NCBI GenBank assembly: GCA_018812945.1
Contig: JAHJCM010000007.1
Coordinates: 11,539-75,538, forward strand
DNA from: Gammaproteobacteria bacterium
GTDB lineage: Bacteria; Pseudomonadota; Gammaproteobacteria; Burkholderiales; Burkholderiaceae_B
Length of the DNA: 64,000 bases
Reading direction: 5' to 3'
The notes beneath the pieces were generated by a model. The model did no database searches and was not told the DNA's origin. It saw only the letters and a program-made list of their open reading frames with translations. Shown here one piece after another: positions 13,224-35,207 of the stretch; within the stretch, counting starts at the first letter, position 1; every line of letters begins with the position of its first letter. Made by a program: the position numbers and the translations under genes.

Positions 13224-13230
13224 GCCTGAC

Positions 13231-13782
13231 ATGCCCTACACAGTGATGCCAACCACTTTGCCCGAAGTGTTGATTCTGGAGCCCAAGGTCTTCGGCGACG
13301 ATCGTGGTTTTTTCTTCGAAAGTTTTAACCAACGAGACTTTCAGCAGGCCACCGGCCTGAACGTGAACTTCGTTCAAGACAACCACAGCAAATCCAGCCA
13401 AGGGGTCCTGCGTGGCCTGCATTACCAGATCCAGCATCCGCAAGGCAAACTGGTGCGGGTGACGCATGGTGCCGTGTTTGATGTAGCCGTAGACCTTCGC
13501 CGCTCATCACCCAACTTTGGCAAATGGGTGGGGGTTGAACTTTCCGCAGATAACAAACGGCAATTATGGGTACCGCCAGGGTTTGCGCATGGCTTTGTGG
13601 TCACCAGCGAATCGGCAGAATTTCTGTACAAAACGACGGACTACTGGTACCCCGAACACGAACGTAGCTTGTTGTGGAATGACCCCTCGGTTGGAATTAA
13701 TTGGCCCATAGAACGCGAGCCTATTCTGGCAAAGAAGGATTCTGCCGCCCCCTTGTTAGGTGCGGCAGAGATCTTTGATTGA
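13231..13782 (+). CDS. rmlC: dTDP-4-dehydrorhamnose 3,5-epimerase
   Basis: FGDDRGFFFESF, QDNHSKS, LRGLHYQ, GFAHGF. Confidence 0.97.
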   Translation: MPYTVMPTTLPEVLILEPKVFGDDRGFFFESFNQRDFQQATGLNVNFVQDNHSKSSQGVLRGLHYQIQHPQGKLVRVTHGAVFDVAVDLRRSSPNFGKWVGVELSADNKRQLWVPPGFAHGFVVTSESAEFLYKTTDYWYPEHERSLLWNDPSVGINWPIEREPILAKKDSAAPLLGAAEIFD

Positions 13783-21479: not shown

Positions 21480-22613
21480 CTACAGGGCCAAGCGCACGGG
21501 CTTTCGAAAGAATACACCCATGCGAACCATGCGGCGGTAGGCGCGTTGATAAACAAAAAAACTAAGTGCCAGCCAGGCCAACACCATGACCAGGCTTTGG
21601 GGCCAGAAAATGGCCCCCAGCATGGGCACCGCTGCATACAACCACATAAATGGCGATGTAAGCGCATTGCGCTGCCATGCTGGTGCATTGGGAATTAGTT
21701 TGCGAGACACCACGCGGCGGTACACCAGGCTGTGCAGATGAGAGGCATCGGGCGTACCGGGGTTGCGCCTGCACTTGCGGCTAAGCCTGCGGTACACACT
21801 GAACAAGGTTTCGATAATGGGGTAGCCACACACCAGCAGCATGGCCCAGGGGCTTACAGCGCCGGGGTTGCGAATGGTAAGTGCCACAGCCAGCGCGGCC
21901 ACCAGGTAACCCAGGCAGTAGGCGCCTGCGTCGCCAAGAAAAATAAGGCCTTTGGGGAAGTTTAACAACATGAAGCCCAGCACCACGGCCACGCCGCACA
22001 ATGCGATGTTGAGAACCACGAAATCGTCAACCCGCCAGGCGATGGCCGCGAGGGTAAGCAACATGAGCACCACTACGCCACTGGCCAAGCCATTGAAACC
22101 ATCAATGATGTTAACGCTGTTGGCAATGCCGGAAATTGCGAAAGCGGTGAACAGCAGGCCTACTGGTGCCCAGGCCAAGAGATAATCAACGCCGGGCAGG
22201 TTTACGCCGCTAATCCAATACCCGCTAAGCAGGGCGAAGGCCAGGCCGCTTAGAGCCGTGGCCAGCAGGCGGGCCTTGACTGATACTTTTTTGGTGATGT
22301 CCTCCAGCAGGCCCGCAACAAAGGCAGGCATACCACCCAACAAAACAAAGCCAAGTAATTCACGCGTTTCCTGACCTTGCTGAGTGTTGTCCGGCAGGGC
22401 TAGCCAAGTTGCCAAAGCGCCAGACAGCAAAGCCACACCCCCAATGCGAGGCGTGGGCATGGTGTGAAACTTTTGAATGCCTTTGGCTTGATCCATGCTG
22501 AATGCACCGTGCCATTGCTTGGTGCACACCAGAAAGGTGGCTGTTGAAAACGCCGCCACAAGGCCGGACAGGATAGCCAACCAATAGATTGGGTTCACCT
22601 CGATGGTTTGCAT
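21480..22613 (-). CDS. MraY/WecA-family undecaprenyl-phosphate HexNAc-1-phosphate transferase, copy 1
   Basis: PTPRIGG, NSVNIIDGFNGLA, FLGDAGAY, PD..HLH motifs. Multiple TM segments. Confidence 0.9.
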   Translation of the reverse strand: MQTIEVNPIYWLAILSGLVAAFSTATFLVCTKQWHGAFSMDQAKGIQKFHTMPTPRIGGVALLSGALATWLALPDNTQQGQETRELLGFVLLGGMPAFVAGLLEDITKKVSVKARLLATALSGLAFALLSGYWISGVNLPGVDYLLAWAPVGLLFTAFAISGIANSVNIIDGFNGLASGVVVLMLLTLAAIAWRVDDFVVLNIALCGVAVVLGFMLLNFPKGLIFLGDAGAYCLGYLVAALAVALTIRNPGAVSPWAMLLVCGYPIIETLFSVYRRLSRKCRRNPGTPDASHLHSLVYRRVVSRKLIPNAPAWQRNALTSPFMWLYAAVPMLGAIFWPQSLVMVLAWLALSFFVYQRAYRRMVRMGVFFRKPVRLAL

Positions 22614-22862
22614 GATGCTCCCGAATGTGTTGCTGTGCCGCTTTAGAAAGAGCGTGCAAATAAATAATTAATAAAGTAGACAACCACAGCAGCCCGTTAA
22701 CTTGTTAAGCCTACTGGGTGGCACATTGTGCCCCCGCAGCATGGCAGTTTTATTACTGTCACAGGAGTGAAAGTATATCACCTCAACTTTGCTTCTGAAC
22801 AATGGTAAAAATGCTCTAGAGCCTTTACTACTCGGGCTTTGTGTTACTGGATGCAAACATTA

Positions 22863-22899: not shown

Positions 22900-24420
22900 T
22901 TAAGGTGCCGCAGTTGCCGTTTCGGCTTGCTTAAAACCTGCGCTGCTTTCATCGAGCGATTCAGTCAATGACAACAAGCGATAAATGGAGATGCTTGCGT
23001 CTGTCTCGCTCAGAATACGTCGGGTATCGTTCAAGTCGCTAGCAGACACATTCAGGCTTTCACCCTCGACAACAATTCCACCGCCCGCAGTTGCGGCTGT
23101 GGTGTTGGCCAAAATAGAACCCAATTGCAGGCTACTACCACTGAAAGTGTAATTGGCGTACACAACACCATTTTGCTCATCACCATTGTTGGCGCTTGCA
23201 TCAAGATCGGTCACGATAATCATCAAGCGGCTACTGCTTAAAAAGTGATAGGCAATGGTGCGGGTTGCACGCATAAAGCTGTGCCTGCCGTTAGTGGGGT
23301 TGGGGGCCCCGGTGGCCAGAGAGTTTTCAGAGCTAAGGTCTTCGATCCACGTACCGACCAGTGTATTTTTCTGATTGCTGAAGCGGGTATAAACCAGGTT
23401 GCCGTCTGCAAATTGAACTACAAGTTCATCGCCATTGAGCAACAAGGGGCGGTTGTAGATATCCTCATTGGGATCGGTAGAACCTGCCGCAGAACCCGTC
23501 GCATTTGCACGCAGCAAACGATTGTCATTGGGGTTGCGTACCAGGAACTTGCCAATATTGGGGTCGCTGGTCACGGGTGAATCTGAGCGAACGTACACCA
23601 CCCGCCCAATTCTCGCATCAGCCGATACGTTGCCCACTGAATCGTAATCGCCACCCACGAACCGGTTGATCAAAGTACGACCGTCCGATGGTGTAGTGCA
23701 ATCGGAGGTACAGCCGCGGTCGAAGCTAAGCACGCTGGTGAAGGAGTCCAGGCTTGCAGGTTCAACCGGACCACTTGTGGGTTCAAAGCGAGCCAGCAAC
23801 CAGGTTCCTGCCAATTCATTGCGATAAAAGCGCTCAAGCGCATCATCGGGATTGGCGACTGTGGGTGGGGTATTGTCATCGCGAATAGTATTATTTCCTG
23901 CGTTGGCGGTTTGCAGGTCTTGCTGGAAATCAGCTGGCGCTTGGGCACACACAGTGATCAGGTTTTCCGTGCTTACGCCCTCGATTGCCGCATTCTCCCG
24001 CAATGTAATAACACCATTGTTGGGGTCGCCGTCTGCATCCACGGTTTGGAACAAAACCGCGATGTTGGCCACTGCATTGGTGCGAGAAGCTTCATCGTTT
24101 GGAAACAGGCTTTCAGCAATGACCGCGGGTGTAATGCGGTTTGCGGCTTCAACAGAAATTTCGACACCCGCAACATTGAAGGTAACCATTTCGCCAGTTT
24201 GAAATTGGAAGGATCCATCTGCACCAGTAACGCCATTTGGATTGCTGGGTGTTGAGTAAGGTACGCCGACCATGGGGTCGTCGGTAAGAACACCTGTGGC
24301 CATGGTTGGCGTGGTAGTGCCGCCGCCGGAAGCGGGTGCGGCGGAGCCACCATCACCACCGCCGCAAGCGGAGAGCCCGGCAAACGCCAATACAACAGTA
24401 AAAAATTTAATTGATTTCAT
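22900..24420 (-). CDS. Uncharacterised surface lipoprotein (506 aa)
   Basis: Lipobox LSAC followed by a Gly-rich tether. N-terminal domain GVTGADGSFQF.TGE.VTF and QTVDADGDPNNG (possible Ca-binding), then beta-rich repeats. Confidence 0.75.
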   Translation of the reverse strand: MKSIKFFTVVLAFAGLSACGGGDGGSAAPASGGGTTTPTMATGVLTDDPMVGVPYSTPSNPNGVTGADGSFQFQTGEMVTFNVAGVEISVEAANRITPAVIAESLFPNDEASRTNAVANIAVLFQTVDADGDPNNGVITLRENAAIEGVSTENLITVCAQAPADFQQDLQTANAGNNTIRDDNTPPTVANPDDALERFYRNELAGTWLLARFEPTSGPVEPASLDSFTSVLSFDRGCTSDCTTPSDGRTLINRFVGGDYDSVGNVSADARIGRVVYVRSDSPVTSDPNIGKFLVRNPNDNRLLRANATGSAAGSTDPNEDIYNRPLLLNGDELVVQFADGNLVYTRFSNQKNTLVGTWIEDLSSENSLATGAPNPTNGRHSFMRATRTIAYHFLSSSRLMIIVTDLDASANNGDEQNGVVYANYTFSGSSLQLGSILANTTAATAGGGIVVEGESLNVSASDLNDTRRILSETDASISIYRLLSLTESLDESSAGFKQAETATAAP

Positions 24421-24679: not shown

Positions 24680-25969
24680 TCAACCTAACAACCCTTTGTT
24701 CGCTTTGCGTGTTGCTTCAAGCTCTTTCTGTATCAATGCGCTTGTTTGCTGGCTTAAACCTACCGCCTTGGCCAAGGTTTCAAACTGAGCAAGGGCATGA
24801 ACGGTGTGTTCAACAATTTGCCGTGCTTCACCCCAATTTGCAAAACCTGCCGCAGCTGCCAAGCCCTGCATCGCCTTTAGTGGCGGCGCTTTTCCAAAAC
24901 CTGCAAATGCGGTGCTGTGCTCGCCATGGGGGTGGGGGCTAAAGGTGACGTCGTAAAAAGGTGCAGGCTGCCACTGGCCTTGGTCGTTCTGCAAAAACGC
25001 CCAGTTTTTGCTGTGGTCGTCTTGATTGCATGCCAGCAAATTGAATACTGCGCGCCGAAATTGAAGCTGAGCTGCAGCAGGCGATTTACATAAGCGCCGG
25101 GTTGCCGAAATTAGCGTTTGATAATCCAGGCTGGGCAAGCGATAGTCTGCACCCAACAGGCCACAAGCACTGTGCATGTGCAAGCGGCCGGCCAGGCCCG
25201 CTTGATTGGAAACCCAGTCAAAACGCTTTAAAGCCAGCCAAGGGTACTCACGATTGGCATGGCCAGGTTGAACCAGAGTGTGTTGCGGCGGTTCAAGCTG
25301 AAGTTGCTCGGCAAGCTGCAAGTACACCGCTTCGCAAACACCTTCCTCGTGGCCCAAGGGCAAACTTGCGGAAGTAAATTTAACCAACCAGGCTTCATCG
25401 CCCGCCCTGGGTGCCGTGCTGCAGTTGGCCCAGTTGCCGGGTTGCGCATATATCAAGGCCTTGGGCCTTGCACCACCCGAATTTCCGCTGACCACCAAGG
25501 CTTGCAGCACCTCACCGGTTTGCCCCTCGAACACGGCTTGGGCTTGTTGGCCCAATTCGCAAAGGTCAACATTGCCCTGCGTTATAGCTGCATATTGTGA
25601 ATTGGGGGCGTACGCCAAGGCACCCACTGCACCCTGCCCCACAAAGGCCAGGCGGTCCATTTGCGTCAGCAGGTTGGGCAGTATGCCGTGCTGGCGAAAT
25701 ACGCGGTCTTGAAGTAGCAGCCCCCAGCCATCGGGCAGGCTATCTGCAAACACACCATGCAGGCCTTGGTGGGGGCCTGCTGGGGCTTGCTGAAGGGCCA
25801 ATGTGTTATTCAGCGCGTAAGGCGACAAATTGCCGAAACGACCCAGGTAATGGTCATGGTACTGAAAGTAAACACCTTGCCTGTTTTGCGCCAGCGTGCC
25901 CACTTCTACTTGCTGGCCAGTTGACAGGGTGCGGCTTACATTCAGTTTTTGGATGGGTTTAAAACTCAT
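24680..25969 (-). CDS. HipA-family kinase toxin (SGGARPK subtype)
   Basis: HipA N-terminal domain (HGVFADSLPDGWG), GNSGGARPK, DDHSKNWAFL, PFYDV. Confidence 0.9.
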   Translation of the reverse strand: MSFKPIQKLNVSRTLSTGQQVEVGTLAQNRQGVYFQYHDHYLGRFGNLSPYALNNTLALQQAPAGPHQGLHGVFADSLPDGWGLLLQDRVFRQHGILPNLLTQMDRLAFVGQGAVGALAYAPNSQYAAITQGNVDLCELGQQAQAVFEGQTGEVLQALVVSGNSGGARPKALIYAQPGNWANCSTAPRAGDEAWLVKFTSASLPLGHEEGVCEAVYLQLAEQLQLEPPQHTLVQPGHANREYPWLALKRFDWVSNQAGLAGRLHMHSACGLLGADYRLPSLDYQTLISATRRLCKSPAAAQLQFRRAVFNLLACNQDDHSKNWAFLQNDQGQWQPAPFYDVTFSPHPHGEHSTAFAGFGKAPPLKAMQGLAAAAGFANWGEARQIVEHTVHALAQFETLAKAVGLSQQTSALIQKELEATRKANKGLLG

Positions 25970-26252
25970 CGGCCAGCACCTGTTCGATGGTTGTTGGGTG
26001 GGCTAAGGTGTTGTTGTGCCGCTGGTTAAGCAGCATAGCCAGGCGGTCTATGTTGTCCAGGCACTCCCAAAGCAGCAAAAACTGGCGTAGCGATATTTGG
26101 CCGGTGGTTTCAAACTTTTTGATGGTGGGCGCTGGCACAGTGCTGATTTTTTCCAATGCCTGACGAGACAGCTTTTGCTGCTTGCGCAGCCGCTGAAGGT
26201 GCTGGGCCAGCTGATTTTGCAGGTAGGTTTCAGTAGACAAACTGATATTCAT
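25959..26252 (-). CDS. XRE-family HTH antitoxin (HipB-like)
   Basis: RLRKQQKLSRQAL...PTIKKFETTGQISL HTH. Overlaps the hipA start by 11 nt. Confidence 0.85.
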   Translation of the reverse strand: MNISLSTETYLQNQLAQHLQRLRKQQKLSRQALEKISTVPAPTIKKFETTGQISLRQFLLLWECLDNIDRLAMLLNQRHNNTLAHPTTIEQVLADEF

Positions 26253-26254
26253 TT

Positions 26255-26312
26255 TAGATACAATAATATCCATTAATGCCAATTATAACATTTTAGGATA
26301 TTATTGTATCTA
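26255..26312. promoter_or_regulatory. Perfect 17-bp inverted repeat, probable antitoxin operator pair
   Basis: TAGATACAATAATATCC (26255-26271) and GGATATTATTGTATCTA (26296-26312), 24-nt spacer, immediately upstream of the antitoxin ATG. Confidence 0.8.
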
Positions 26313-26337
26313 TTTTCTAGGGTGGTATAAGTGCGTT

Positions 26338-27450
26338 TTAGTGGGCACGCCTGCGAAAGAAAATACCCAACACCAGCATGCGGCGGTACAAGCGCACATA
26401 AGCCACTACGCTGAAGGCCAGCCATGCCAACACCATGCCCAGGCTTTCTGGCCAGAACACGGCGCCCAGCATGGGCACTGCGGCGTAAATCCACATAAGC
26501 GGTGAAGTAGCAGCATTGCGCTGCCAGGCAGGCGCGTAAGGCAACAACTTGCGGCTGACTACGCGGCGGTACACAAGGCTGTGCAGGTGGCTGGCATCGG
26601 GAGTGCCAGGGTTGTGCCTGCGTTTGCGGGTGGTGCGGCGGTACACGCTAAAAAGCGTTTCAATAACCGGGTAACCACACACCAACAGCATGGCCCATGG
26701 GCTTACGTCGATGGGGTTGCGCATGGCCAGCATTACAGCCAGCATGGCCACGTAGTAGCCAAGGAAGTAGGCCCCAGCATCGCCCAAGAACAAGTGGCCC
26801 TTGGGGTAATTGATGAACAAAAAACCGAAGGTAACCGACACGCCCAGCAGGGCCAGTTGAATGATGACAAAGTCGTCGACCCGCCAGGCAATGGTGGCCA
26901 GCGTAAGCAGCATAAGCACCACCACGCCACCGGCCAAGCCGTTAAACCCATCCACAATATTCACACTGTTGGCAATGCCACCCACTGCAAAGGCAGTGAA
27001 GATGAGGCCGATTGGGGCCAGCGCCAGCAAGGTGTCCACGCCCGGCACATTCACAAAACTGACCCAGTAACCAGTCAGCAAGGCTGCGATTAAACCGCTG
27101 GCAATAGTGGCTAGCAGGCGGGCTTTCACGCTAACGCGCTTGGTAACGTCTTCAGCCAGGCCAAAAGCAAAGGCCGGCAAAGCACCCAGCAACAGCAGGC
27201 CCAACAGGTGCTGGCGGTTGCTGCCCACCGGCAGGAAAGACCAGGCCGCAATTAAACCCACGGCCAGCGCGATACCGCCGATGCGGGGCGTTGGAATGGT
27301 GTGAAACTTTTGAATGCCCTGGGGGGCATCGAGTGTAAGGCGGCCATGCCACTTTTTAGTTAACACAATAAACAAGGCCACAAGAAAGCTACATAACAGC
27401 CCTACCATGGCCGAGGGCCAGTTCAGGCTTAGCGCCGCTGCTGTTTGCAT
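26338..27450 (-). CDS. MraY/WecA-family transferase, copy 2 (paralogue of 21480-22613)
   Basis: Same motifs as copy 1. Shares the RBS/start context GGAGCATCATGCAAA with copy 1. Confidence 0.9.
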   Translation of the reverse strand: MQTAAALSLNWPSAMVGLLCSFLVALFIVLTKKWHGRLTLDAPQGIQKFHTIPTPRIGGIALAVGLIAAWSFLPVGSNRQHLLGLLLLGALPAFAFGLAEDVTKRVSVKARLLATIASGLIAALLTGYWVSFVNVPGVDTLLALAPIGLIFTAFAVGGIANSVNIVDGFNGLAGGVVVLMLLTLATIAWRVDDFVIIQLALLGVSVTFGFLFINYPKGHLFLGDAGAYFLGYYVAMLAVMLAMRNPIDVSPWAMLLVCGYPVIETLFSVYRRTTRKRRHNPGTPDASHLHSLVYRRVVSRKLLPYAPAWQRNAATSPLMWIYAAVPMLGAVFWPESLGMVLAWLAFSVVAYVRLYRRMLVLGIFFRRRAH

Positions 27451-27472
27451 GATGCTCCACACACATGAAACA

Positions 27473-27494
27473 GTGCTTGCGGGCGGGCAAGCAC
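27473..27494 (-). terminator. Perfect 8-bp stem hairpin in the leader of wecA copy 2
   Basis: GTGCTTGC-GGGCGG-GCAAGCAC, followed on the minus strand by TGTTTC. Confidence 0.45.
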
Positions 27495-27734
27495 ATTGTT
27501 TTATTTAAGTTATTAAAAATGCCCGAAACGGCAAATTGCTACAGGTAATATTTCGTAATTATTGCACCTGCTTCATGGCAGATGTGTGACACGGCACTCT
27601 TAGCGAGAGTATACGCCTGCCTTTGTTACACGTGTTACAGCCTTTTGGATTCAGCCTAAGGCGATTAAATGCTAACGGACGAGTGGAGAATTGGTTGGCA
27701 GGAATTAATTGAATACCGCCACCGCATTGGCTTT

Positions 27735-28052
27735 CTAATAACCCTGAAACAAAAAGTCGAGGGCTGAAATGATCTTGACCTGTTCATCTACCAACGACAC
27801 GACAGGTGTTTTCAGTACGCGTTTGGGTACTGCGCCCATTTTGGGCACTTCAAGCAAATACTCTTTCCCCATTATGGTGAGCAAAGGGGTAAGCCTTGTG
27901 GGCAACTTGACGTTGGGGAAGTTATCCATGCTGCGCAAAGGAATAACCATTCGACTGTCCAGGCTATCGAATAAATCTGCCTGAACGTCCAATAAATACG
28001 GAGTGGCCAGCTTGTGGTTACCGGGGTTGGAGTACACATCAAAACGCGCCAC
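27735..28052 (-). CDS. ccdB: CcdB-family toxin
   Basis: ARFDVY.N, YLLDVQADL, RMVIPL, RLTP and C-terminal ALDFLFQGY. GTG start overlaps the ccdA stop (TAGTG). Confidence 0.85.
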   Translation of the reverse strand: MARFDVYSNPGNHKLATPYLLDVQADLFDSLDSRMVIPLRSMDNFPNVKLPTRLTPLLTIMGKEYLLEVPKMGAVPKRVLKTPVVSLVDEQVKIISALDFLFQGY

Positions 28053-28315
28053 TAGAAACTTCTCCATTGGTCCAATGGCAAGCCCTCTTCCTCAACGATT
28101 GAGTTGTATGCAGCAATAAATTCAGAATGATCTTGCTTCCAACGGCGCTCTTGTTCTTTGCGAACCACTTCTCGAAGGTAGTTGTCGCAAACCTGAGAAA
28201 TATTGATCCCCAAGGATTTGGCAGACTCCAAAACATCCGCGCTTAAGGTTAAGTTTGCCGCCCGCTTGCCCGATGTCCCGGGCCGGGAGGGAAGCTTGCG
28301 TTTGATCACGGCCAT
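28052..28315 (-). CDS. ccdA: CcdA-family antitoxin
   Basis: KRAANLTL...AKSLGINISQ and RRWKQDHSEFIAAYN..VEEEGLPL...RSF. Confidence 0.85.
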   Translation of the reverse strand: MAVIKRKLPSRPGTSGKRAANLTLSADVLESAKSLGINISQVCDNYLREVVRKEQERRWKQDHSEFIAAYNSIVEEEGLPLDQWRSF

Positions 28316-28324
28316 TGAAACCTC

Positions 28325-28346
28325 ATGCGCATTATTGTATGCGTAT
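28325..28346. promoter_or_regulatory. Probable ccdAB operator
   Basis: Palindrome ATGCGCAT (28325-28332) and near-copy ATGCGTAT (28339-28346), 14-bp period, just upstream of the ccdA ATG. Confidence 0.55.
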
Positions 28347-28399
28347 ATTTTAACCCTCATTTCCTCAAATGAAAACAAGCAGCAATAAGCTTGCGAAAC

Positions 28400-29584
28400 T
28401 TACCGCCCCACTAGCTGAATGGCCTGTTTGGCCATGGTGGTGACCGACAGGTGCAGCAGGTTGAACACCCAGCGAATGGTGGCTACCGAAGCATCGGCCA
28501 ATGCATGGGTTGAGCGGCCCAGGTAAGCCATGATGGCGTTGAGCATGCCCGCTACCTCTTTGGCCTGTTTGTGGCTGGCTTGGGCATAACGGGCGAGTAT
28601 TTCGGCCATTTGATCGAGCACCGTGAATGCGCCACTGCGGTAGTGGCCCACACTGAGCAGGCTTTGCGCCCCGAGGCGAGAAAGCATGTCGTGAATGGCT
28701 TTGTTGATCAGTTTAAGCAAGCGCCCACTGAACATGGCACCGGGCATTTTGGCGAGTTGTTCAAACTGCCCTGCTTCTTTGTTGTTGGCGGGGTACAGCG
28801 AGTTTTCTAACTGCTGTTGTTTGCCTTGAGTAAGGCTTTGCATTTGCTTCCAGCCGGCATTGATCATGCTTCCGTAGCCGTTGGCCAGCATGTGTTGCAT
28901 GGGGTTGATTTTTAGCATGCCACCCTCGAGCAGGTATGTACCGTGCACATAGGGAGAATGCACAAAAGGGTAGCAAGGCACCATGGTGACAATATCCGCT
29001 TCGTTGGCCACGCGGTACACATGGGCGGCTTTCATTTTCTTACTCAGGTGCTCAGCATACGGCACCATGCCCACGCGGGGAGCGGCCACCGTATACAGGT
29101 AGGAATTCAGGCCCAGTTCGGCGCAAGCCGCCGCATTGAGGTTGGCCAGGGCGCCGCCCAGGCTGTGGCCCATGCAGTGCACTGCGGTGGGTTTGAAACC
29201 GAGGGTTTGTTGCTGGATGAATTCATTGAGCTGCTGAACATAGCTTTTGAAGGTGGTGCCAAAGCCTTTGTGGATGGCGTGGCCTGTGGGGCCAAGAGTT
29301 GGGATTGCGTTGATGTCGGTGCCTGCGTCCGCCCAAGTGGCCGTGCCACGGGTGGCGATGATGATTTCACGGGAGCGTCCACCATTGAGCCGGGCCATGA
29401 AGCCAAAGCCGCTGGAGACAGGGGTGATGAGGCCGGAGGTGGCGGTGATTAACTTAAGAGAATTGAGATCAATGAACGGCATCGAAATCCCCAACTGATC
29501 TTTAAGCGCAATTGAGTCCCTACCTTTGGCTTTGTATGCTCCATCGGAGAGCAAATAAATTTGATTAGGTGTTAGCTGATTCAT
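28400..29584 (-). CDS. Lipase class 3 family protein (putative phospholipase effector)
   Basis: ATRGT, IHKGF, GHSLGG nucleophile elbow, YTVAAPRVG, EADIVTMVP. No signal peptide. ATG lies 1 nt after the upstream stop. Confidence 0.85.
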   Translation of the reverse strand: MNQLTPNQIYLLSDGAYKAKGRDSIALKDQLGISMPFIDLNSLKLITATSGLITPVSSGFGFMARLNGGRSREIIIATRGTATWADAGTDINAIPTLGPTGHAIHKGFGTTFKSYVQQLNEFIQQQTLGFKPTAVHCMGHSLGGALANLNAAACAELGLNSYLYTVAAPRVGMVPYAEHLSKKMKAAHVYRVANEADIVTMVPCYPFVHSPYVHGTYLLEGGMLKINPMQHMLANGYGSMINAGWKQMQSLTQGKQQQLENSLYPANNKEAGQFEQLAKMPGAMFSGRLLKLINKAIHDMLSRLGAQSLLSVGHYRSGAFTVLDQMAEILARYAQASHKQAKEVAGMLNAIMAYLGRSTHALADASVATIRWVFNLLHLSVTTMAKQAIQLVGR

Positions 29585-29585
29585 T

Positions 29586-30059
29586 TTAGACATTCCCGTT
29601 GTGTTGGCATCGGACAATTCGACCGTGGTCGAATTGCTCATAGGTAGACAGATCGCAATTTATTTTTATTACACCGTCTTTTGCTTCACTTCTTTCGCCG
29701 AAGTCGTGCTTGGTGTATGACCAAATTGCATAGCGCTGCCCCTCGTGCAAAAGCCAAACGAGCTGCGAAATATTGGGATTCGCCGACAACAAATCGGGCC
29801 TTAAAAACCTGCGCTCTTGAACCACTTCAAACTTGAACCGACCGTCGCTGCCGGTAGTCGAGGTGTCTCTATGTTTCCCACCCTCGAAGCCTCCGCTGTA
29901 GAGTTCTCGCGTTACAACCACATTGGCCAGCGGCTTTCCCTGCCAATGAATAAAACCCTCGATGGGCGAGCAGTACACAATTTTTCTGAACACAAAGGCC
30001 TCCGAGGAAACGGGAGTAAGGGGCAGCAGCAAGACCAGGGCAAACAAAATGCGGTACAT
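29586..30059 (-). CDS. Secreted transthyretin-like protein (DUF6795-like), putative immunity partner of the lipase
   Basis: Signal peptide MYRILFALVLLLPLTPVSSEA, CSPIEG..GKPLANVVVTR, TTGSDGRFKF, C-terminal CDL...C. Confidence 0.6.
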   Translation of the reverse strand: MYRILFALVLLLPLTPVSSEAFVFRKIVYCSPIEGFIHWQGKPLANVVVTRELYSGGFEGGKHRDTSTTGSDGRFKFEVVQERRFLRPDLLSANPNISQLVWLLHEGQRYAIWSYTKHDFGERSEAKDGVIKINCDLSTYEQFDHGRIVRCQHNGNV

Positions 30060-30209
30060 GGTTGAAGCCTGCGCGTATTGAACAAACGAGCACGCTAGCA
30101 CCGGGTGAAGCGAGAGGCAAAAACTAGGCTGGGTAGGTAATCAGGATGAGGGGTATTGCATTGGAGCAGTGCCAACATGCAATGGGTTAATACCACTTCC
30201 ATTTGAGAA

Positions 30210-30281
30210 TACATATTGAGTTGCGTAGTTTCAATTTACTTAATACAATTTGTAAATTAAAAATACAACTTTCAATTTGTA
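30210..30281. promoter_or_regulatory. Three phased HipB-type operators
   Basis: TAC-N12-GTA starting at 30210, 30237 and 30264 (27-bp period). The last is the perfect ATACAA-N8-TTGTAT overlapping the hipB ATG. Confidence 0.7.
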
Positions 30282-30541
30282 TGAATGAATTTCCATTACG
30301 CACCGCAGAACAACTTGGCTCAATGCTTCAGTCCTTTCGCAGGCAAGCTGGCATGACCCAGTCTGAAGTTGCGATTCGCTTGGGCATTACCCAACAAACC
30401 TTGTCGGCCCTGGAAAGAAATGCAAAGAAAGTGAGTGCCGACCGGTTACTGGCACTTCTGAGTATTCTGGGAGTAGAACTGGTGATGCGCAAGGCGAATG
30501 AATTACCCCCCCAAAAAACCCCAACCGGGCAGGATTGGTAA
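30281..30541 (+). CDS. hipB: HipB antitoxin (XRE HTH)
   Basis: RRQAGMTQSEVAIRLGITQQTLSALERN HTH, 3 nt before hipA. Confidence 0.9.
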   Translation: MNEFPLRTAEQLGSMLQSFRRQAGMTQSEVAIRLGITQQTLSALERNAKKVSADRLLALLSILGVELVMRKANELPPQKTPTGQDW

Positions 30542-30544
30542 AGC

Positions 30545-31897
30545 ATGGGGCGACGAAATCACAAACACACCTTGTATTTGTGGATGAATGGTGAATTGGT
30601 GGGCACCTGGAGCATGCGCCTCCACGCTGGCGAAACCCTGCAGTATGACCACGATTGGCTGGCATCCGGGCAAGGGCGCCCATTATCTTTGTCGCTGCCA
30701 TTTACACCGGGCAACCCGCCGCATCAAAGCGATGCGGTGCGTACCTATTTTGAAAATTTGCTACCAGACAGCCAGGTAATTCGCGAACGAGTAGCACGCA
30801 AGTTTCGGGTAGGCTCTACACAGGCATTCCCCTTACTTGCAGAAATAGGACGCGATTGCGTGGGGGCCCTTCAAATACTTCCAGATGCAAACCCACCCGA
30901 GGGTATTAAAGAGGTATTGGCGACCCCGCTGAAAGAGGCTGACATTGCGCAATTGCTTCGCCGCACCTTATCACCCTCAACACAAGTTAACCCGGAAAGG
31001 GATGACACTGACTTTCGCATATCGATTGCAGGCGCACAGGAAAAGACTGCGCTGGTGTGGCTGAATGAACAATGGTGCTTGCCACATGGGTCGACACCCA
31101 CAACGCACATACTCAAACTTCCACTGGGCTTGGTTGGCAACCTGAAAGTAGATATGCGCGACTCAGTTGAAAATGAATGGCTATGCTCGAAAATTCTGGA
31201 TGCATTCGACTTGCCTGTTGCACCCACACAAATCCTTCAGTTTGAAGACATGAAAGTACTGGCCGTGGAACGATTCGACCGCCAGTGGCAAACCGATGAA
31301 ACGGGTCAAAGGTGGCTTGTACGTTTGCCGCAGGAAGACATGTGCCAGGCCACGGCAACACCACCGCATTTGAAATACGAATCCGACGGTGGCCCGGGCA
31401 TTCGCAGCATTATGAATCTGCTGGCAACTTCTCAAAACCCGGATCGCGACCGGCGCTTGTTTTTTCAGGCACAGGTGCTTTTCTGGATGCTTCGCGCCAC
31501 CGATGGGCACGCAAAGAACTTCAGTATTTTCATCCGGCGAGGCGGAACTTACGAACTGACCCCCTTGTACGATGTGCTTTCGGCCTACCCGGTAATTGGC
31601 AATGGTGCGCAACAGTTGTCGCCATTCAAAGCGAAGATGGCCATGGCTGTACGGTCGAAAAACCCGCACTGGACAATGCAAGATATTGTGCGCAGGCACT
31701 GGGTGGCTGTGGGAACGGAACATGGTGTGGTGGCACCAGACGGCCAGGGTGTTGAGGCGGTACTGGACAACTTGATTGAGAAGACTCCAGAAGTGGTGCG
31801 CGCGGTACGCGCAATTTTGCCCAAGGAATTTCCGATACACACTGCTGACAGCATACTCAATGGGCTGCTAAGCGCTGCAAACAAATTGAAGGCATAG
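30545..31897 (+). CDS. hipA: HipA kinase toxin (classical E. coli type)
   Basis: PLSLSLP, FENLLPD, GRDCVGA, RISIAGAQEKTAL, DGHAKNFS, PLYDVLS. Confidence 0.93.
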   Translation: MGRRNHKHTLYLWMNGELVGTWSMRLHAGETLQYDHDWLASGQGRPLSLSLPFTPGNPPHQSDAVRTYFENLLPDSQVIRERVARKFRVGSTQAFPLLAEIGRDCVGALQILPDANPPEGIKEVLATPLKEADIAQLLRRTLSPSTQVNPERDDTDFRISIAGAQEKTALVWLNEQWCLPHGSTPTTHILKLPLGLVGNLKVDMRDSVENEWLCSKILDAFDLPVAPTQILQFEDMKVLAVERFDRQWQTDETGQRWLVRLPQEDMCQATATPPHLKYESDGGPGIRSIMNLLATSQNPDRDRRLFFQAQVLFWMLRATDGHAKNFSIFIRRGGTYELTPLYDVLSAYPVIGNGAQQLSPFKAKMAMAVRSKNPHWTMQDIVRRHWVAVGTEHGVVAPDGQGVEAVLDNLIEKTPEVVRAVRAILPKEFPIHTADSILNGLLSAANKLKA

Positions 31898-31948
31898 AAA
31901 GCACTGGGGCCTGTAATCAGGACGGGGGGGCATTTCTGCTGGTTGTTG

Positions 31949-31992
31949 CTTGAAACTATCAAGCTAGATAAACTAGTCAGATAACTAGTTAT
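31949..31992. promoter_or_regulatory. Promoter/operator of the phd-vapC pair
   Basis: Perfect palindrome ATAACTAGTTAT (31981-31992), CTAG repeats at 31964 and 31973, and CTTGA-N5-TCAAG (31949-31963). Confidence 0.6.
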
Positions 31993-32005
31993 TTAGGAAA
32001 GTTTC

Positions 32006-32266
32006 ATGCAAACATGGCCCGTACAGGATGCAAAAGCCAGATTCAGTGAACTACTGGACACCTGCCTGCGTGATGGCCCACAAGCTGTAAGCAGACGCGG
32101 CCAAGAACAGGCGGTTTTAGTACCCATGGCTGAATGGGTACGGCTAACCCAGAAAAACCAGCCGGGCGTGAAAGATTTGCTACTGGCCGAGGAGGCCCGT
32201 ACGGAATACCTTGTGCCCCCGAGAGGGCAGCTAAAGCGCCGAAAAGCCACCGGACAGGAAGGCTGA
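32006..32266 (+). CDS. Phd/YefM-family antitoxin
   Basis: WPVQDAKARFSELL...GPQAVSRRGQEQAVLV. Confidence 0.9.
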   Translation: MQTWPVQDAKARFSELLDTCLRDGPQAVSRRGQEQAVLVPMAEWVRLTQKNQPGVKDLLLAEEARTEYLVPPRGQLKRRKATGQEG

Positions 32267-32269
32267 ACC

Positions 32270-32674
32270 ATGTACCTTCTGGACACCAACGTTATTTCCG
32301 AACTACGAAAAACAAAACCCCATGGAGCAGTGCTGGCGTGGATCAAGAATATTCCCGAGCATTTGCTTTACCTTAGCGCATTTACGCTGGCTGAAATTCA
32401 AAGCGGAATCGAGAGAACCAGAGAACAAGATGAGGGCAAAGCCGAAGAAATAGAACTGTGGCTGAACAAATTGGAAGCCACGTTTAAGGTGCTACCCATG
32501 GATGCAAAGTGCTTCCGAGTGTGGGCAAAATTAATGCACCGGGAAACAGACACAGCATTGGAAGATGCCATGATTGCCGCCACTGCCCTCGCCAACAAGT
32601 TAACGGTAGTAACCCGCAACACGAAAGACTTTACCCGGTTTGATGTGCCGTTACTGAACCCGTTTTCGGGTTAA
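32270..32674 (+). CDS. vapC: VapC PIN-domain toxin
   Basis: MYLLDTNVISE, EIQSG, DAMIAATA, VVTRNTKDF. Confidence 0.92.
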   Translation: MYLLDTNVISELRKTKPHGAVLAWIKNIPEHLLYLSAFTLAEIQSGIERTREQDEGKAEEIELWLNKLEATFKVLPMDAKCFRVWAKLMHRETDTALEDAMIAATALANKLTVVTRNTKDFTRFDVPLLNPFSG

Positions 32675-32824
32675 AGGCTGGCCGTGAATGCAACACTGTG
32701 AGCAGCGAAGTAAAGCGGCAACACTTTTATGCGCCAATTAGTGCGGATGATTACATTTTTATGCGCGTGAAAGTGTAAACCAACAAAAAGCCAAATGCTT
32801 GCGGTGCGCCCTAAAGCCTGATAA

Positions 32825-32847
32825 TGTACACACTAATTTGTACACAC
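32825..32847. promoter_or_regulatory. Probable vapBC operator
   Basis: TGTACACAC at 32825 and 32839 (14-bp period). Each contains the palindrome TGTACA. Confidence 0.6.
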
Positions 32848-32859
32848 CCAGAGGTGCTA

Positions 32860-33129
32860 ATGGCTTCACCTGTCTCTACTACTCGGGTTTTCAACAACGG
32901 CAACAGCCAAGCGGTGCGCATTCCCGCCGAGTTTCGCTTGAATACTGACCGGGTTCAAATTAGCCGCAATGAACACGGCGACCTTGTTATTCACCCCATA
33001 CCTGCCGAGCGCGGGCAGGCTTTGTTGCGGGCACTGCAAGCTTTGGGTGAAGTTGACGAACAATTTATCGCTGCACTGGAAGCCGAGCAGGAGGACAGCC
33101 AACCCATGCAAGATCGCGAGGCGCTGTGA
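32860..33129 (+). CDS. vapB: VapB antitoxin (AbrB/MazE fold)
   Basis: TRVFNNGNSQAVRIPAEFRL. GAGG RBS before ATG 32860. Confidence 0.9.
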   Translation: MASPVSTTRVFNNGNSQAVRIPAEFRLNTDRVQISRNEHGDLVIHPIPAERGQALLRALQALGEVDEQFIAALEAEQEDSQPMQDREAL

Positions 33130-33536
33130 TTTACCTGCTTGACACCAACATTCTGATTTACCTGATCAAAAACCAGCCACCGACCATTGCCCAGAAAGTA
33201 AATTCGCTACCCACAGATGCAAAACTGGCCATGAGTTTTATTACTTGGGCAGAACTGTTGAAGGGTGCAGAGCGCAGCAGCCGCAAGCCAGAAACCTTGC
33301 GCAGGCTGGATCAATTGGCCCAGCAGATCCATGTGATGTACCCGAGTGGCCCGACGATATGCAAGCACTATGCAGAACAATTTATGCAATTGAAAGACGC
33401 GGGAACCCCCATAGGAGCAAATGACTTGTGGATTGCGTGCCATGCACTGGCCGAGAATGCAACGCTGGTAACCCACAACACCAAGGAATTTTTAAGAGTG
33501 AAAGGGCTGGTGGTTGAGGATTGGGTGGTTGAATAG
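33126..33536 (+). CDS. vapC: VapC PIN-domain toxin
   Basis: YLLDTNILI, ELLKGAERS, PIGANDLWIACHA, LVTHNTKEF. 4-nt overlap with vapB. Confidence 0.92.
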   Translation: MIYLLDTNILIYLIKNQPPTIAQKVNSLPTDAKLAMSFITWAELLKGAERSSRKPETLRRLDQLAQQIHVMYPSGPTICKHYAEQFMQLKDAGTPIGANDLWIACHALAENATLVTHNTKEFLRVKGLVVEDWVVE

Positions 33537-33555
33537 ATTTGATATAGAAGAAGAC

Positions 33556-33720
33556 TTGGCCGCATTGCGAGAAGACACAACGCTGGCTGAGCTTTGCAAG
33601 CAGTTTGAACTACACCCCACCCAAATCGTTGAATGGAAAAAGCAACTGCTGGCCAATGCGAGCGGTGCATTTGGATCACATTCCAAAGTCACGGAAGCGG
33701 TTGATCTGAAGCCACTGCAG
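33556..33720 (+). mobile_element. IS3-family transposase OrfA fragment (remnant)
   Basis: LAALREDTTLAELCKQFELHPTQIVEWKKQLL HTH_Tnp_1-like segment ending at VDLKPL. No start, OrfB or terminal repeats seen. Confidence 0.7.
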
Positions 33721-33753
33721 TTGATTTTGCCAATCGCAAGTGGCAGACTACTA

Positions 33754-34308
33754 TTAATTTCGAAATACCTCACATAGATTAAAACTTCCGGCAGCCGCAT
33801 CTTTTACAGAAAGTTTCGGCACATCTTCTAAAGGCCACTGAATTCCAATATCGGGATCATTCCAGCAGATACTTCGCTCGTGCTCCGGATACCAGTAGTC
33901 GGTCGTTTTATATAAGAAATCCGCAAACTCGCTCAAAACCAAAAAACCATGTGCAAATCCCTCGGGTATCCATAGCATTCGTTTATTCTCGGCTGACAAT
34001 TCAACTCCAGCCCATTTGCCGAAATTCGCTGACGTCGTACGCATGTCGACAGCGACGTCGAATACGGCACCGCTAACAACCCGTACCAACTTGCCCTGAG
34101 GGTGCCTAATTTGATAATGAAGCCCCCGCAGAACGCCTTTCTCGGAGCGGCTATGGTTATCTTGCACGAAATCAACATCAAAGCCTGTCGCGTCGATAAA
34201 ATCACGCTGATTGAAGCTTTCAAAAAAGAAACCGCGTTCATCACCGAACACTTTCGGCTCTAACATCAACACTTCGGGCAAGCTGGTTTTAGAAACAAGG
34301 TATGGCAT
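33754..34308 (-). CDS. rmlC: dTDP-4-dehydrorhamnose 3,5-epimerase, copy 2
   Basis: FGDERGFFFESF, QDNHS, LRGLHYQ, GFAHGF. Confidence 0.95.
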   Translation of the reverse strand: MPYLVSKTSLPEVLMLEPKVFGDERGFFFESFNQRDFIDATGFDVDFVQDNHSRSEKGVLRGLHYQIRHPQGKLVRVVSGAVFDVAVDMRTTSANFGKWAGVELSAENKRMLWIPEGFAHGFLVLSEFADFLYKTTDYWYPEHERSICWNDPDIGIQWPLEDVPKLSVKDAAAGSFNLCEVFRN

Positions 34309-34311
34309 AGT

Positions 34312-35187
34312 TCATCTTAATAAATTCAGTAAATACTGGCCGTAAACGCCTTTGGCAAGTGGGAGCGCAAGTTTATTTAAGGCTTCAGAGTCAATCCACC
34401 CTTGCTGAAAGGCAATTTCCTCAGGACATGCGACTTGCAAACCCTGCCGCTTTTGAAGTGTCGCGATGAAACTGGCAGCTTCTAGAAGACTATCGTGTGT
34501 ACCAGTGTCCAGCCAGGCAAACCCTCGCCCCATAATTTCAACGTCAAGCTCGCCCGATTTAAGGTATCGCTGATTGATATCCGTAATCTCCAGTTCACCA
34601 CGAGCCGAGGGTTTGATTTCCGCAGCAATATCGCATACCTGCTGATCATAAAAATAAAGCCCGGTTACCGCAAAATTGCTTTTGGGCTTGGCTGGTTTTT
34701 CTTCGATACTGACCGCTCTCTTTTGTAGGTCAAACTCCACTACTCCATAACGCTGGGGATCATTTACGTGATAAGCAAATACACTTGCGCCATTGACTTT
34801 TGAGTTTGCGCTGCGAAGTCGCTTAACGAGGTCGTGACCATAAAAGATGTTGTCGCCTAAAACTAGCGCACTTGGATTGTTGTCAATGAAAGATTTTCCA
34901 ATAACAAAAGCCTGTGCCAGGCCATCTGGTGAGGGTTGAACCGCGTATTGGATATTCATACCCCACTGTTCCCCATCCCCCAATAATTCGGCAAACCGGG
35001 GGGTGTCTTGTGGAGTGCTGATAACCAATACATTACGGATTCCTGCAAGCATCAAGGTGCTCAGCGGGTAATAAATCATGGGTTTGTCGTACACTGGCAT
35101 CAGTTGTTTGCTGATGGCCTGAGTGATGGGATACAAGCGAGTACCCGACCCACCGGCAAGAACTAATCCTTTCCGATCAATGCTCAT
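34312..35187 (-). CDS. rmlA: Glucose-1-phosphate thymidylyltransferase, copy 2
   Basis: [34 protein letters not shown]. Confidence 0.95.
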
Positions 35188-35207
35188 CAAGGTTACGCCT
35201 TTCTAAA

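Follow-up and report, generated by a model that had tools for sequence, protein, structure and literature searches.

Toxin-antitoxin genes at a polysaccharide junction

The window analysed here is a stretch of 64,000 nucleotides of Limnobacter DNA, and its interval 24680-33536 contains five type II toxin-antitoxin (TA) pairs according to Pfam and NCBIfam: two HipBA, CcdAB, Phd-VapC and VapBC. Both flanks of the interval are polysaccharide loci. These pairs and their setting had been recognized in a preliminary description of this DNA, together with a lipase gene pair (Lipase_3 plus DUF6795, 28400-30059, minus strand) and an IS3 scar, and the searches bear out all of these observations. The features are as follows.

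24680-25969, minus strand: HipA1, divergent HipA-family Ser/Thr kinase toxin, 429 aa (Pfam HipA_C 1.6e-38, Couple_hipA 7e-12)
25959-26252, minus strand: HipB1-like antitoxin, 97 aa, longest ORF to 26282 (weak HTH_31 match)
26255-26312, no strand assigned: putative operator inverted repeat 5' of hipB1, TAGATACAATAATATCC / GGATATTATTGTATCTA, with perfect 17-nt arms
26338-27462, minus strand: GT4-2, WecA/MraY-family priming glycosyltransferase, second paralogue in the window (Pfam Glycos_transf_4 1.1e-25)
27714-28407, no strand assigned: CcdAB cassette with 7-nt direct repeats TACCGCC (copies at 27714-27720 and 28401-28407)
27735-28052, minus strand: CcdB toxin, 105 aa, GTG start (Pfam CcdB 7e-33)
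28052-28315, minus strand: CcdA antitoxin, 87 aa (Pfam CcdA 1e-26)
28400-29584, minus strand: class-3 lipase, 394 aa from M20, ORF extending to 29641 (Pfam Lipase_3 1.4e-18)
29586-30059, minus strand: DUF6795 protein, 157 aa, signal-peptide-like N-terminus (Pfam DUF6795 1.3e-18)
30137-30153, plus strand: 17-nt direct repeat GTAATCAGGAYGRGGGG, left copy bracketing the HipBA2 cassette
30281-30541, plus strand: HipB2 antitoxin, 86 aa, ORF starting at 30203 (Pfam HTH_3 2e-12; NCBIfam HipB 6e-11)
30545-31897, plus strand: HipA2, canonical E. coli-type HipA kinase toxin, 450 aa (PDB HipA 2wiu, E 1.3e-100)
31913-31929, plus strand: right copy of the same 17-nt direct repeat, just past the hipA2 stop codon
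32006-32266, plus strand: Phd/YefM-family antitoxin, 86 aa (Pfam PhdYeFM_antitox 4e-13; NCBIfam phd_fam)
32270-32674, plus strand: VapC1, PIN-domain toxin, 134 aa (Pfam PIN 6e-19)
32860-33129, plus strand: VapB antitoxin, MazE/AbrB type, 89 aa, ORF starting at 32824 (Pfam MazE_antitoxin 1.5e-6)
33126-33536, plus strand: VapC2, PIN-domain toxin, 136 aa, GTG start (Pfam PIN 5e-17)
33537-33740, plus strand: IS3-family OrfA fragment, beginning immediately past the vapC2 stop codon and marking the island's right edge

All five toxins are full length, with catalytic motifs that align with those of solved homologues, and in every pair the antitoxin gene lies 5' of the toxin gene with an overlap or a gap of at most 3 nt. 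Strain-level copies of the pairs contain no frameshifts and no stops, and the left-arm genes have dN/dS values of 0.02-0.12. As judged from these alignments, all five pairs are intact and evolve under purifying selection. Their clustering is beyond chance, with five operons in 8.9 kb versus none among the approximately 50 flanking ORFs scanned (at least 100 aa). The pairs had been described as packed together. However, the interval also encloses the GT4-2 gene, which was overlooked at that stage, and the TAs are thereby divided among three slots rather than forming a single packed array. One slot lies left of GT4-2, the second separates GT4 from the lipase, and the third lies between DUF6795 and the right-hand glycan locus.

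Searches of the TA interval yielded neither an integrase nor a tRNA gene, no relaxase, recombinase, replication or conjugation genes are present at the island, and an attC-like RYYYAAC...GTTRRRY pair is absent from all intergenic regions, in agreement with the lack of integrase and attC sites reported earlier. The GC content of the island (0.52) equals that of its conserved neighbours; the variable glycan cassettes have 0.44-0.46. Short direct repeats flank two of the cassettes, CcdAB and HipBA2. In the chromosomal (super)integrons of Vibrio, TA cassettes have been proposed to stabilise the array, and there, as here, many TAs are interspersed with dispensable genes and repeats delimit individual cassettes. 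In contrast to those arrays, the Limnobacter island has neither intI nor attC sites, and its bracketing repeats are short, direct and different between cassettes, with no repeat family common to them.

Individual pairs and their promoters

The catalytic loop (NQDDHSKN) and YD motif of HipA1 align with Shewanella HipA (4pu5/4pu3), and its dN/dS against strain copies is 0.07-0.12. The hipB1 gene overlaps hipA1 by 11 nt, its product accompanies HipA1 without exception in related genomes (dN/dS at most 0.1), and Acinetobacter plasmids carry a homologous pair with the annotation HipA toxin and HTH regulator. CcdB aligns over its full length with Vibrio fischeri CcdB (2kmt, E 1e-14), and ccdA and ccdB overlap by 1 nt. 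Among solved structures, FitB (2h1c, E 7e-15) is closest to VapC1, which has the acidic residues D5, E42, D99 and D120; its 10 strain copies, themselves selected on the VapC1 protein, show no non-synonymous changes. VapC2 matches Haemophilus VapC (6nkl) over its full length (E 2e-41).

HipBA2 resembles hipBA of E. coli K-12. The alignment covers HipA2 from end to end (E 1e-100), and in it the segments ISIAGAQEKTAL, ATDGHAKNFS and LTPLYDVLSAYP match the E. coli HipA motifs, among them the P-loop serine motif, the catalytic DxHxKN loop and the Mg-binding Asp. An HTH-type HipB is likewise encoded 3 nt upstream, and the promoter region contains palindromic repeats. The operators of E. coli hipBA are TATCC-N8-GGATA, whereas the hipB2 repeats differ from this pattern.

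A plausible operator repeat had been proposed at each pair, and this is upheld for two of them. The inverted repeat 5' of hipB1 overlaps a promoter-like site on the minus strand, and its score is reached by 0 of 500 shuffles. The same is true of a 14-nt direct repeat, ACAYTTTTATGCGC, located 5' of vapB at 32721 and 32753, where TGTACACAC is also present twice. The ATACAA..TTTGTAT-type repeats 5' of hipB2 (30209-30285) are marginal (18/500), the repeat upstream of phd is not significant (75/500), and no repeat beyond chance is found at ccdA.

The glycosyltransferase and lipase-DUF6795 core

GT4-2 shares 68% protein identity with GT4-1 (21480-22613) and has a dN/dS of 0.02-0.04. The lipase has a GHSLGG serine motif and an Asp-containing segment that align with fungal lipases, and no signal peptide was seen by inspection. 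This lipase family is essentially confined to Limnobacter, and a member is found at the junction in all Limnobacter genomes examined. Its DUF6795 partner, encoded 1 nt upstream of the lipase start, is hypervariable (77-79% nucleotide identity, dN 0.17), whereas its neighbours are 93-99% identical. An AF2 model (pLDDT 83) predicts a beta-sandwich, which gave no informative match in a comparison with the PDB. Gene content compared across about 20 relatives (genomes and contigs) identifies the priming GT4 gene and the genus-specific lipase-DUF6795 pair as the stable core of this junction.

This pair is reminiscent of type VI secretion (T6SS) Tle/Tli systems, in that a GxSxG lipase, predicted to be cytoplasmic, is closely linked with a small and hypervariable partner predicted to be exported, and other strains have tandem duplicates as well as orphan or remnant copies. 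Unlike in Tle/Tli systems, there is no nearby VgrG, PAAR or Hcp gene, and the partner gene comes first. Comparison with solved Tle or Tli proteins gave no sequence or fold match, and to our knowledge no T6SS is known in Limnobacter.

Turnover among Limnobacter relatives

Among the approximately 20 related genomes and contigs compared, each TA pair is absent from at least one genome that retains its neighbours. HipBA1 is absent from CACIAM 66H1. CcdAB is missing as a clean indel from MED105, L. olei and a marine metagenome, and the empty site of MED105 has a single TACCGCC directly after the lipase stop codon. Depending on the strain, the GT4-lipase slot contains CcdAB, MazE-PemK, another HipA with an HTH protein, an MNT-type nucleotidyltransferase gene, AbiEii with an HTH protein, Fic, or nothing. 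HipBA2 is absent from L. olei and from the dominant strain of a sludge metagenome. Its 17-nt repeat, with two copies in the window versus 0.02 expected, is present once at the empty site of L. olei P1, and MED105, sp. 130 and L. alexandrii have near-matches (2-3 mismatches) at the equivalent position. The direct repeats around the cassettes could equally be deletion microhomologies.

The entire right arm is absent from MED105, and right-arm cassettes are found separately in other strains. CACIAM 66H1 has a 3.3-kb deletion, corresponding to 29523-32846 of the window, that removes DUF6795 and the slot of HipBA2 and Phd-VapC1, both of which its ancestor presumably carried. Toxins have also decayed beside whole antitoxins: sp. 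130 has a broken CcdB, and CACIAM 66H1, L. profundi and MAG CJ05B have VapC2 copies that are truncated or carry internal deletions. Independent turnover of the TAs, which the preliminary description had named as grounds for rejecting a protective or defensive role, is what the comparison reveals; it rests on these pairwise absences with neighbours kept, the different TA families in the same slots, and the CcdB and VapC2 pseudogenes.

The glycan loci had been proposed as a recombination hotspot, consistent with their replacement on both sides in related strains, with breakpoints at the island edges (24732-24776 and 33535-33543). On the left, the final 17-30 codons of HipA1 vary together with the flank; on the right, homology with strains of different flank stops at 33535-33543. 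The IS3 OrfA fragment at this edge matches Pfam HTH_Tnp_1 below the curated cut-off (E 7e-4) and is 39% identical (E 2e-14) to a 100-aa, intact-length IS3 OrfA at the same junction of the related contig L081, in the opposite orientation. Close strains keep the block 24732-33543 at 93-100% identity while both flanks differ. Identity is 98-100% in the right arm and 93-96% in the left; the low right-arm dS (0-0.05) is partly due to ascertainment, because the contigs had been picked for encoding an identical VapC1 protein.

A probable hotspot of TA accretion

The interval is probably a TA-accretion hotspot in a recombination-prone junction, rather than a coordinated protective array or a dedicated defence island. 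Comparable TA spots occur in Photorhabdus, where TAs cluster in small high-turnover intervals, rarely with defence systems and in neighbourhoods that are not conserved, and are lost through deletion or toxin pseudogenisation (Belot, Payelleville, Jurenas, Rocha, Van Melderen, Mol Biol Evol 2026, PMC13617665). The Limnobacter interval shares with them several type II TAs, the lack of accompanying defence systems, nearby transposase remnants, unconserved neighbours and both routes of loss. It differs in its lineage, at the phylum level (Limnobacter is betaproteobacterial), in toxins that are predicted from sequence, and in being anchored on a glycan-locus junction and the lipase-DUF6795 pair. 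An 8-kb chromosomal island of Leptospira licerasiae VAR010 is listed with 7 putative TA systems, several of them type II and mostly PIN-type, and thus has a similar TA density; unlike here, the available part of that account describes no polysaccharide-junction link, and the rows listed include no HipBA or CcdAB (PMC3493377).

The preliminary description had favoured a function for the cluster as a whole. As an addiction array, the five TAs would jointly retain a dispensable part of the chromosome, the glycan junction with GT4-2 and the lipase pair, because a spanning deletion would kill the cell. GT4-2 and the lipase pair are flanked by TA pairs, and the block retained despite a swapped left or right glycan locus could be read as TAs fixing the junction in place; the available text of one study reports that HipAB stabilises a Shewanella genomic island (PMC8978831). 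However, single cassettes are cleanly lost, L. olei P1 retains GT4-2 only as fragments despite the adjoining HipBA1, and Photorhabdus TAs failed to conserve their neighbourhoods (PMC13617665). Since the glycan loci were exchanged regardless and CACIAM 66H1 has lost 3.3 kb, long-term protection from deletion is not seen, and we consider joint protection unlikely.

It is similarly improbable that the TAs are abortive-infection modules beside phage-receptor glycan genes. Some TA families restrict phage, surface glycans are common phage receptors, and AbiEii with an HTH protein, Fic and an SNF2 helicase fill the same slots in other Limnobacter strains. However, PADLOC matched no island protein except for a weak hit (~1e-5) to about 35 residues over the HipA1 kinase loop, the scanned window ORFs included no genes of restriction-modification, CBASS, retron or similar systems, and TAs and antiphage systems rarely co-cluster in Photorhabdus (PMC13617665). 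A decayed mobile element (an integrated plasmid, ICE or IS3 composite transposon), of which the right arm (HipBA2, Phd-VapC1, VapBC2 and IS3) or the entire block would be a remnant, is likewise improbable: the IS3 fragment, a different IS3 at the L081 junction, the higher right-arm identity, the 17-nt repeats around HipBA2 and the occurrence of HipA1-type and HipA2-type relatives on plasmids fit such an origin, but the mobility genes sought are lacking, GC does not deviate, the right-arm cassettes separate in other strains, and the best plasmid relatives are only 65-68% identical and cover hipA alone.

Under TA accretion, single operons would have arrived one by one through horizontal transfer in three permissive slots of a Limnobacter (Burkholderiales) chromosome, where a conserved PCP-OPX-GT4 polysaccharide export module meets a horizontally exchanged glycan cassette. 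Each pair would act alone as an autoregulated addiction module, an addictive nature that family membership suggests, with the antitoxin-toxin complex repressing its own promoter. Loss of the labile antitoxin would free a kinase, gyrase poison or PIN RNase, which may delay loss of that pair for some time, until deletion or toxin pseudogenisation erodes it. Because the pairs are gained and lost separately in related strains, the junction resembles a commonplace site where selfish addiction genes collect. With arrival and erosion one by one, the cluster would mark where selfish modules can insert and persist, a pattern that agrees with the TA spots already described in Photorhabdus (PMC13617665).

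Gene content and state of the toxin-antitoxin pairs

ORF listing with Pfam and NCBIfam scans recovered all five toxin-antitoxin (TA) pairs named in the preliminary description, together with its lipase pair, a lipase and a DUF6795 gene. The genes of the island are as follows.

24680-25969 (-): HipA-family kinase (HipA1)
25959-26252 (-): HTH-like protein, 97 aa (HipB1)
26338-27462 (-): GT4, WecA/MraY-family priming glycosyltransferase (ORF and Pfam)
27735-28052 (-): CcdB (ORF and Pfam)
28052-28315 (-): CcdA (ORF and Pfam)
28400-29584 (-): class-3 lipase (ORF and Pfam)
29586-30059 (-): DUF6795 protein with a signal-peptide-like N-terminus (ORF and Pfam)
30281-33536 (+): HipB2, HipA2, Phd, VapC1, VapB and VapC2, in that order

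The interval also holds a GT4 gene that the description left unmentioned, so the TAs are split into separate slots. Chance can hardly account for five TA operons in 8.9 kb when none occurs among about 50 other ORFs scanned.

HipA2 matches Couple_hipA and HipA_C in Pfam and aligns end to end with Escherichia coli HipA (2wiu, E 1e-100), with ISxAGAQEKTAL (P-loop Ser), TDGHAKNFS (catalytic loop), and LTPxYD (Mg-binding Asp) all conserved, as in the full-length kinase of a HipBA type II TA. HipB2, located 3 nt 5' of hipA2, has the profile of an Xre-type antitoxin (HTH_3 2e-12, NCBIfam HipB 6e-11). HipA1 is a distant family member but keeps the DxHxKN loop (HipA_C 1.6e-38; NQDDHSKN and YD aligned), and this kinase overlaps its upstream partner by 11 nt. 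Since the HTH signal of HipB1 is weak (E 0.0017, below the cut-off), it was assigned as a HipB from its position, its inheritance together with HipA1, and a homologue on plasmids that carries an HTH-regulator annotation. CcdA and CcdB score 93 and 113 bits versus Pfam cut-offs of 22.4 and 28.6, and their genes are ordered antitoxin first with a 1-nt overlap, as in ccdAB operons. The alignment of CcdB with its Vibrio fischeri counterpart spans the full length. The gyrase-poisoning residues of F-plasmid CcdB are the C-terminal W99-G100-I101; the protein encoded here ends in FQGY, the Gly of which aligns with that of F-plasmid and Vibrio CcdB. VapC1 (PIN, 6e-19) resembles FitB and VapC2 (PIN, 5e-17) resembles Haemophilus VapC (E 2e-41); aligned with FitB and with Haemophilus and Shigella VapC, they show the acidic residues. 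Both have the gene arrangement of PIN TA pairs, with Phd 3 nt 5' of VapC1 and a 4-nt overlap between VapB and VapC2. All five toxins look intact and are putatively functional. Compared with strain-level copies, the island genes have no stops and no frameshifts. Metatranscriptome contigs from two rRNA-depleted freshwater sets span genes across the island, which is weak evidence that these are transcribed. Together with purifying selection and operator-like repeats at 2-3 of the five pairs, this gives indirect evidence for toxins that would arrest growth, antitoxins that would neutralise them, and operons that would be autoregulated.

An operator repeat had been proposed for each pair. Two operator-like repeats clearly exceed shuffled controls, a perfect 17-nt inverted repeat upstream of HipB1 (spanning 26255-26312) and a 14-nt direct repeat upstream of VapB (32721-32766); 0 of 500 shuffles reached the score in either case. 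HipB2 is marginal, the Phd repeat is not significant, and no repeat above shuffled controls was found upstream of CcdA. Predicted promoters and terminators did not rise above background, and an island-wide search found no repeat family common to different cassettes.

Turnover of TA cassettes across Limnobacter

The best genome matches of the window are Limnobacter, and we compared about 20 homologous loci. These include species representatives (L001, L091/L122 from MED105, L092/L119 from CACIAM 66H1, L120 from L. olei P1, L121 from sp. 130, L123 from L. alexandrii, and L124), complete and draft genomes and metagenome contigs (L081-L090, L126 from L. profundi, and L127-L131), and Logan metagenome contigs. 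The constants of the junction across the genus are a GT4 gene, usually adjoining OPX-PCP and missing at the locus only in L130, the most distant one, and the lipase-DUF6795 pair; all else varies.

Content of the slot between GT4 and the lipase
CcdAB: window, L082-L086, CACIAM 66H1, L125
CcdA and broken CcdB: sp. 130
MazE-PemK: L. profundi
Different HipA with HTH: L128
MNT-type nucleotidyltransferase gene: L129
Fic and VapC2 remnant: L001
AbiEii and HTH with second DUF6795-lipase pair: L. alexandrii, L131
Empty: MED105, L. olei, L124, L127, a marine metagenome strain

Content of the slot between DUF6795 and the right-hand glycan locus
HipBA2, Phd-VapC1, and VapBC2: window, L081-L088
Phd-VapC1 and VapBC2: L. 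olei
Phd-VapC1 without HipBA2: dominant strain of a sludge metagenome
Phd-PIN and VapB with truncated VapC2: L. profundi
Phd-PIN alone: L127
VapBC-like pair: L131
HipBA2 and a different PIN-Phd pair: L001
Fic: L124
No TA: MED105, sp. 130, L128

HipBA1 is found in some strains bearing the island GT4 copy and is missing in CACIAM 66H1. The latter also has a 3.3-kb deletion, corresponding to window 29523-32846, that fuses the start of the lipase gene with sequence 5' of VapB, and an additional 116-bp deletion within VapC2. In L. olei P1, the island GT4 gene has decayed to fragments. The matrix of about 20 loci shows what characterizes chromosomal TA accretion spots as defined by Belot et al. 2026: a small homologous interval holds several TAs, its content differs across the genus, pairs are eroded through deletion or pseudogenisation of the toxin, and neighbours are not conserved. 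The interval fits a TA-accretion hotspot.

The edges of two cassettes carry direct repeats. CcdAB is bordered by a 7-nt repeat (TACCGCC) directly 3' of the lipase stop, single copy at the empty site. HipBA2 is bordered by the 17-nt repeat GTAATCAGGAYGRGGGG, which has 2 copies in the window versus 0.02 expected and a single copy at the L. olei empty site; in MED105, sp. 130, and L. alexandrii, sequences differing from it at 2-3 positions are found 5' of DUF6795. Either target-duplicating insertion or short-homology deletion could have produced these repeats.

Divergence differs along the island. Left-arm genes (lipoprotein, HipA1, HipB1, island GT4, and lipase) have dS of 0.10-0.37 and dN/dS of 0-0.15, mostly 0.02-0.12. 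Right-arm genes are 98-100% identical, with dS mostly 0-0.05, a near-identity that is partly ascertainment because the contigs were retrieved through an identical VapC1 protein; for the same reason it was downgraded as proof of a recent sweep. The L. olei P1 locus, which came from a separate search with the lipase, has an even 91-97% identity.

Flanking glycan loci and island edges

Scans of both flanks bear out the setting between two polysaccharide loci. The left flank has Wzx, Wzy, and GT2 genes plus rmlBDAC, and after these comes an export module (YjbH/YjbF-PCP-OPX-GT4); on the right are rmlCA, a methyltransferase, Wzx, GT1 genes, WbpM-like, Bac_transf, epimerase, and Wzy genes. That this is a glycan recombination hotspot is likewise upheld, as the flanking loci are replaced, with breakpoints at the island edges. 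Homology to strains with a different left flank, where GT2, Rce1-like, and other genes stand instead of a 506-aa lipoprotein, ends at 24732-24776, inside the last hipA1 codons. The last 17-30 codons of hipA1 (24680-24776) exist in two allelic versions, giving proteins of 429 and 431 aa, and the version present depends on the left flank, which places the recombination breakpoint inside the toxin gene. Where rmlCA on the right is replaced by DegT, hexapeptide transferase, and GFO or UDP-sugar dehydrogenase, homology stops at the IS3 scar (33535-33543). The scar is real: an OrfA fragment at 33537-33740, directly 3' of VapC2, has 39% identity (E 2e-14) to the complete-length IS3 OrfA of one related locus (L081 4829-5131, opposite orientation). 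Two different IS3-family elements struck the same post-vapC2 junction in the window and L081.

The 506-aa protein (22900-24420, -) has a lipobox-like N-terminus (LSAC), is conserved (dN/dS 0.07-0.08), and matched no Pfam, NCBIfam, or PADLOC family. Of the two left-flank variants, just one carries it. The GT4 paralogues at 21480-22613 and 26338-27462 share 68% protein identity and an identical 16-nt stretch at their starts (22606-22621 and 27443-27458); more distant Limnobacter species have a single copy adjoining OPX. Each glycan locus has an rmlA/rmlC set at its inner end (12291-13782 and 33754-35190); the two sets are on opposite strands and share only about 68% DNA identity. Toward their outer ends, the loci have low GC contents of 0.44 and 0.46 versus 0.52-0.56 elsewhere. 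Large glycan-locus ORFs of 803, 395, 438, and 357 aa (49805-53315, -; 231-1547, +; 5531-6604, +) had no Pfam match at E 1e-5.

As the preliminary description had stated, no integrase was found among the ORFs scanned, and the intergenic regions contain 0 attC-like R''..R' pairs. The island lacks the intI, attC, and common cassette repeat of an integron or superintegron. It also does not resemble an ICE or integrative island: no integrase and, in a scan of the window, no tRNA gene was found, and its GC content of 0.52 equals that of conserved neighbours, versus 0.44-0.46 in the variable glycan cassettes. An Rfam search of the whole window returned no family. Traces of mobility are limited to the IS3 fragment and the cassette-level direct repeats. 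Plasmid BLAST gave only distant hipA homologues (65-68% identity) and revealed no vehicle for the cassettes.

The lipase-DUF6795 pair

The least understood element of the island is the lipase-DUF6795 pair. Both families are essentially confined to Limnobacter, and the pair, with 1 nt between its genes, is at this junction in every Limnobacter genome examined (window 28400-30059; L. alexandrii L123 4571-9212; L131 9525-13876; L001 12332-13261). It is tandemly duplicated in L. alexandrii and L131, and MAG CJ05B has a lipase remnant beside a second DUF6795. DUF6795 and the lipase N-terminus are hypervariable (66-83% nucleotide identity in 400-bp bins; DUF6795 dN 0.17), and DUF6795 proteins of different species share 62-85% amino acid identity. 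The variability, tandem copies, and remnant give the two genes the look of a polymorphic toxin-immunity pair. In CACIAM 66H1 (L092 7376-9058), the DUF6795 deletion also took the first codons of the lipase and the upstream region, a single case that fits a lipase unable to stay active without its partner.

DUF6795 has no PDB sequence match, and we found no paper mentioning it in a literature search. Its AF2 model (pLDDT 83) matches generic beta-sandwiches in Foldseek (TM about 0.3), so no function was assigned from structure; the lipase model (pLDDT 55, from a shallow alignment of one genus) is too poor for fold comparison. As regards a possible T6SS Tle-Tli pair, the lipase has a GxSxG motif and its partner, probably exported, a signal-peptide-like N-terminus, but the structural comparisons gave no informative match. 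No linkage to a T6SS was seen: no VgrG, PAAR, or Hcp is present in the window or the related loci listed, and a literature search on T6SS in Limnobacter gave no relevant statement. The pair resembles an effector-immunity or toxin-immunity pair. We consider it a long shot that it is a toxin-immunity (addiction-like) module not described before and that the hotspot formed around it, with TA cassettes hitch-hiking on glycan-locus exchange. The conserved block would then act as a homology arm for the exchange, with the cassettes riding along in and out, and the retention of the pair in every Limnobacter would offer a lasting place to land, not essential to the cell, beside the serotype-determining loci.

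Accretion versus array-level function

Under accretion, autonomous addiction modules would enter the junction one by one, because it is permissive and prone to recombination; purifying selection would keep them for some time before they erode. The same pattern and model have been published for Photorhabdus, where TA clusters are described as accretion spots (PMC13617665), and the Limnobacter island shows the same turnover. For Leptospira licerasiae, an island of similar TA density is listed (PMC3493377).

The preliminary description offered two functional readings, and had named independent turnover of the TAs, with no effect on locus stability or phage plating, as evidence against them; independent turnover is what the Limnobacter comparison revealed. 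Its view of the setting is right, whereas its array-level functions have no positive support here, so its interpretation is partly supported. An addiction array, in which the five TAs jointly hold the glycan junction, is improbable, although it may act in the short term: cassettes are lost separately and neighbours are swapped or decayed beside intact TAs. Equally improbable, although short-term effects may occur, is a defence island of TAs acting as antiphage modules beside glycan receptor genes: AbiE, Fic, and SNF2 helicase do occupy corresponding slots in other strains, but PADLOC matched nothing in the island beyond a weak, partial hit of HipA1 (kinase loop) to PDC-M03A, ORF scans of the window found no other defence genes, and the cassettes turn over independently.

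As a probable TA-accretion hotspot, the junction is a clean natural example outside enterobacteria of a chromosomal TA pile-up. In the three slots of this one homologous junction, no fewer than eight TA or TA-like families have been exchanged across one genus, with toxin decay caught at several stages. The comparison also argues against taking TA density beside surface-glycan loci as a sign of design for stability or defence. The junction may serve as a test bed for whether TAs alter the rate of serotype-locus replacement, and its hypervariable lipase-DUF6795 pair is a candidate new toxin-immunity system.
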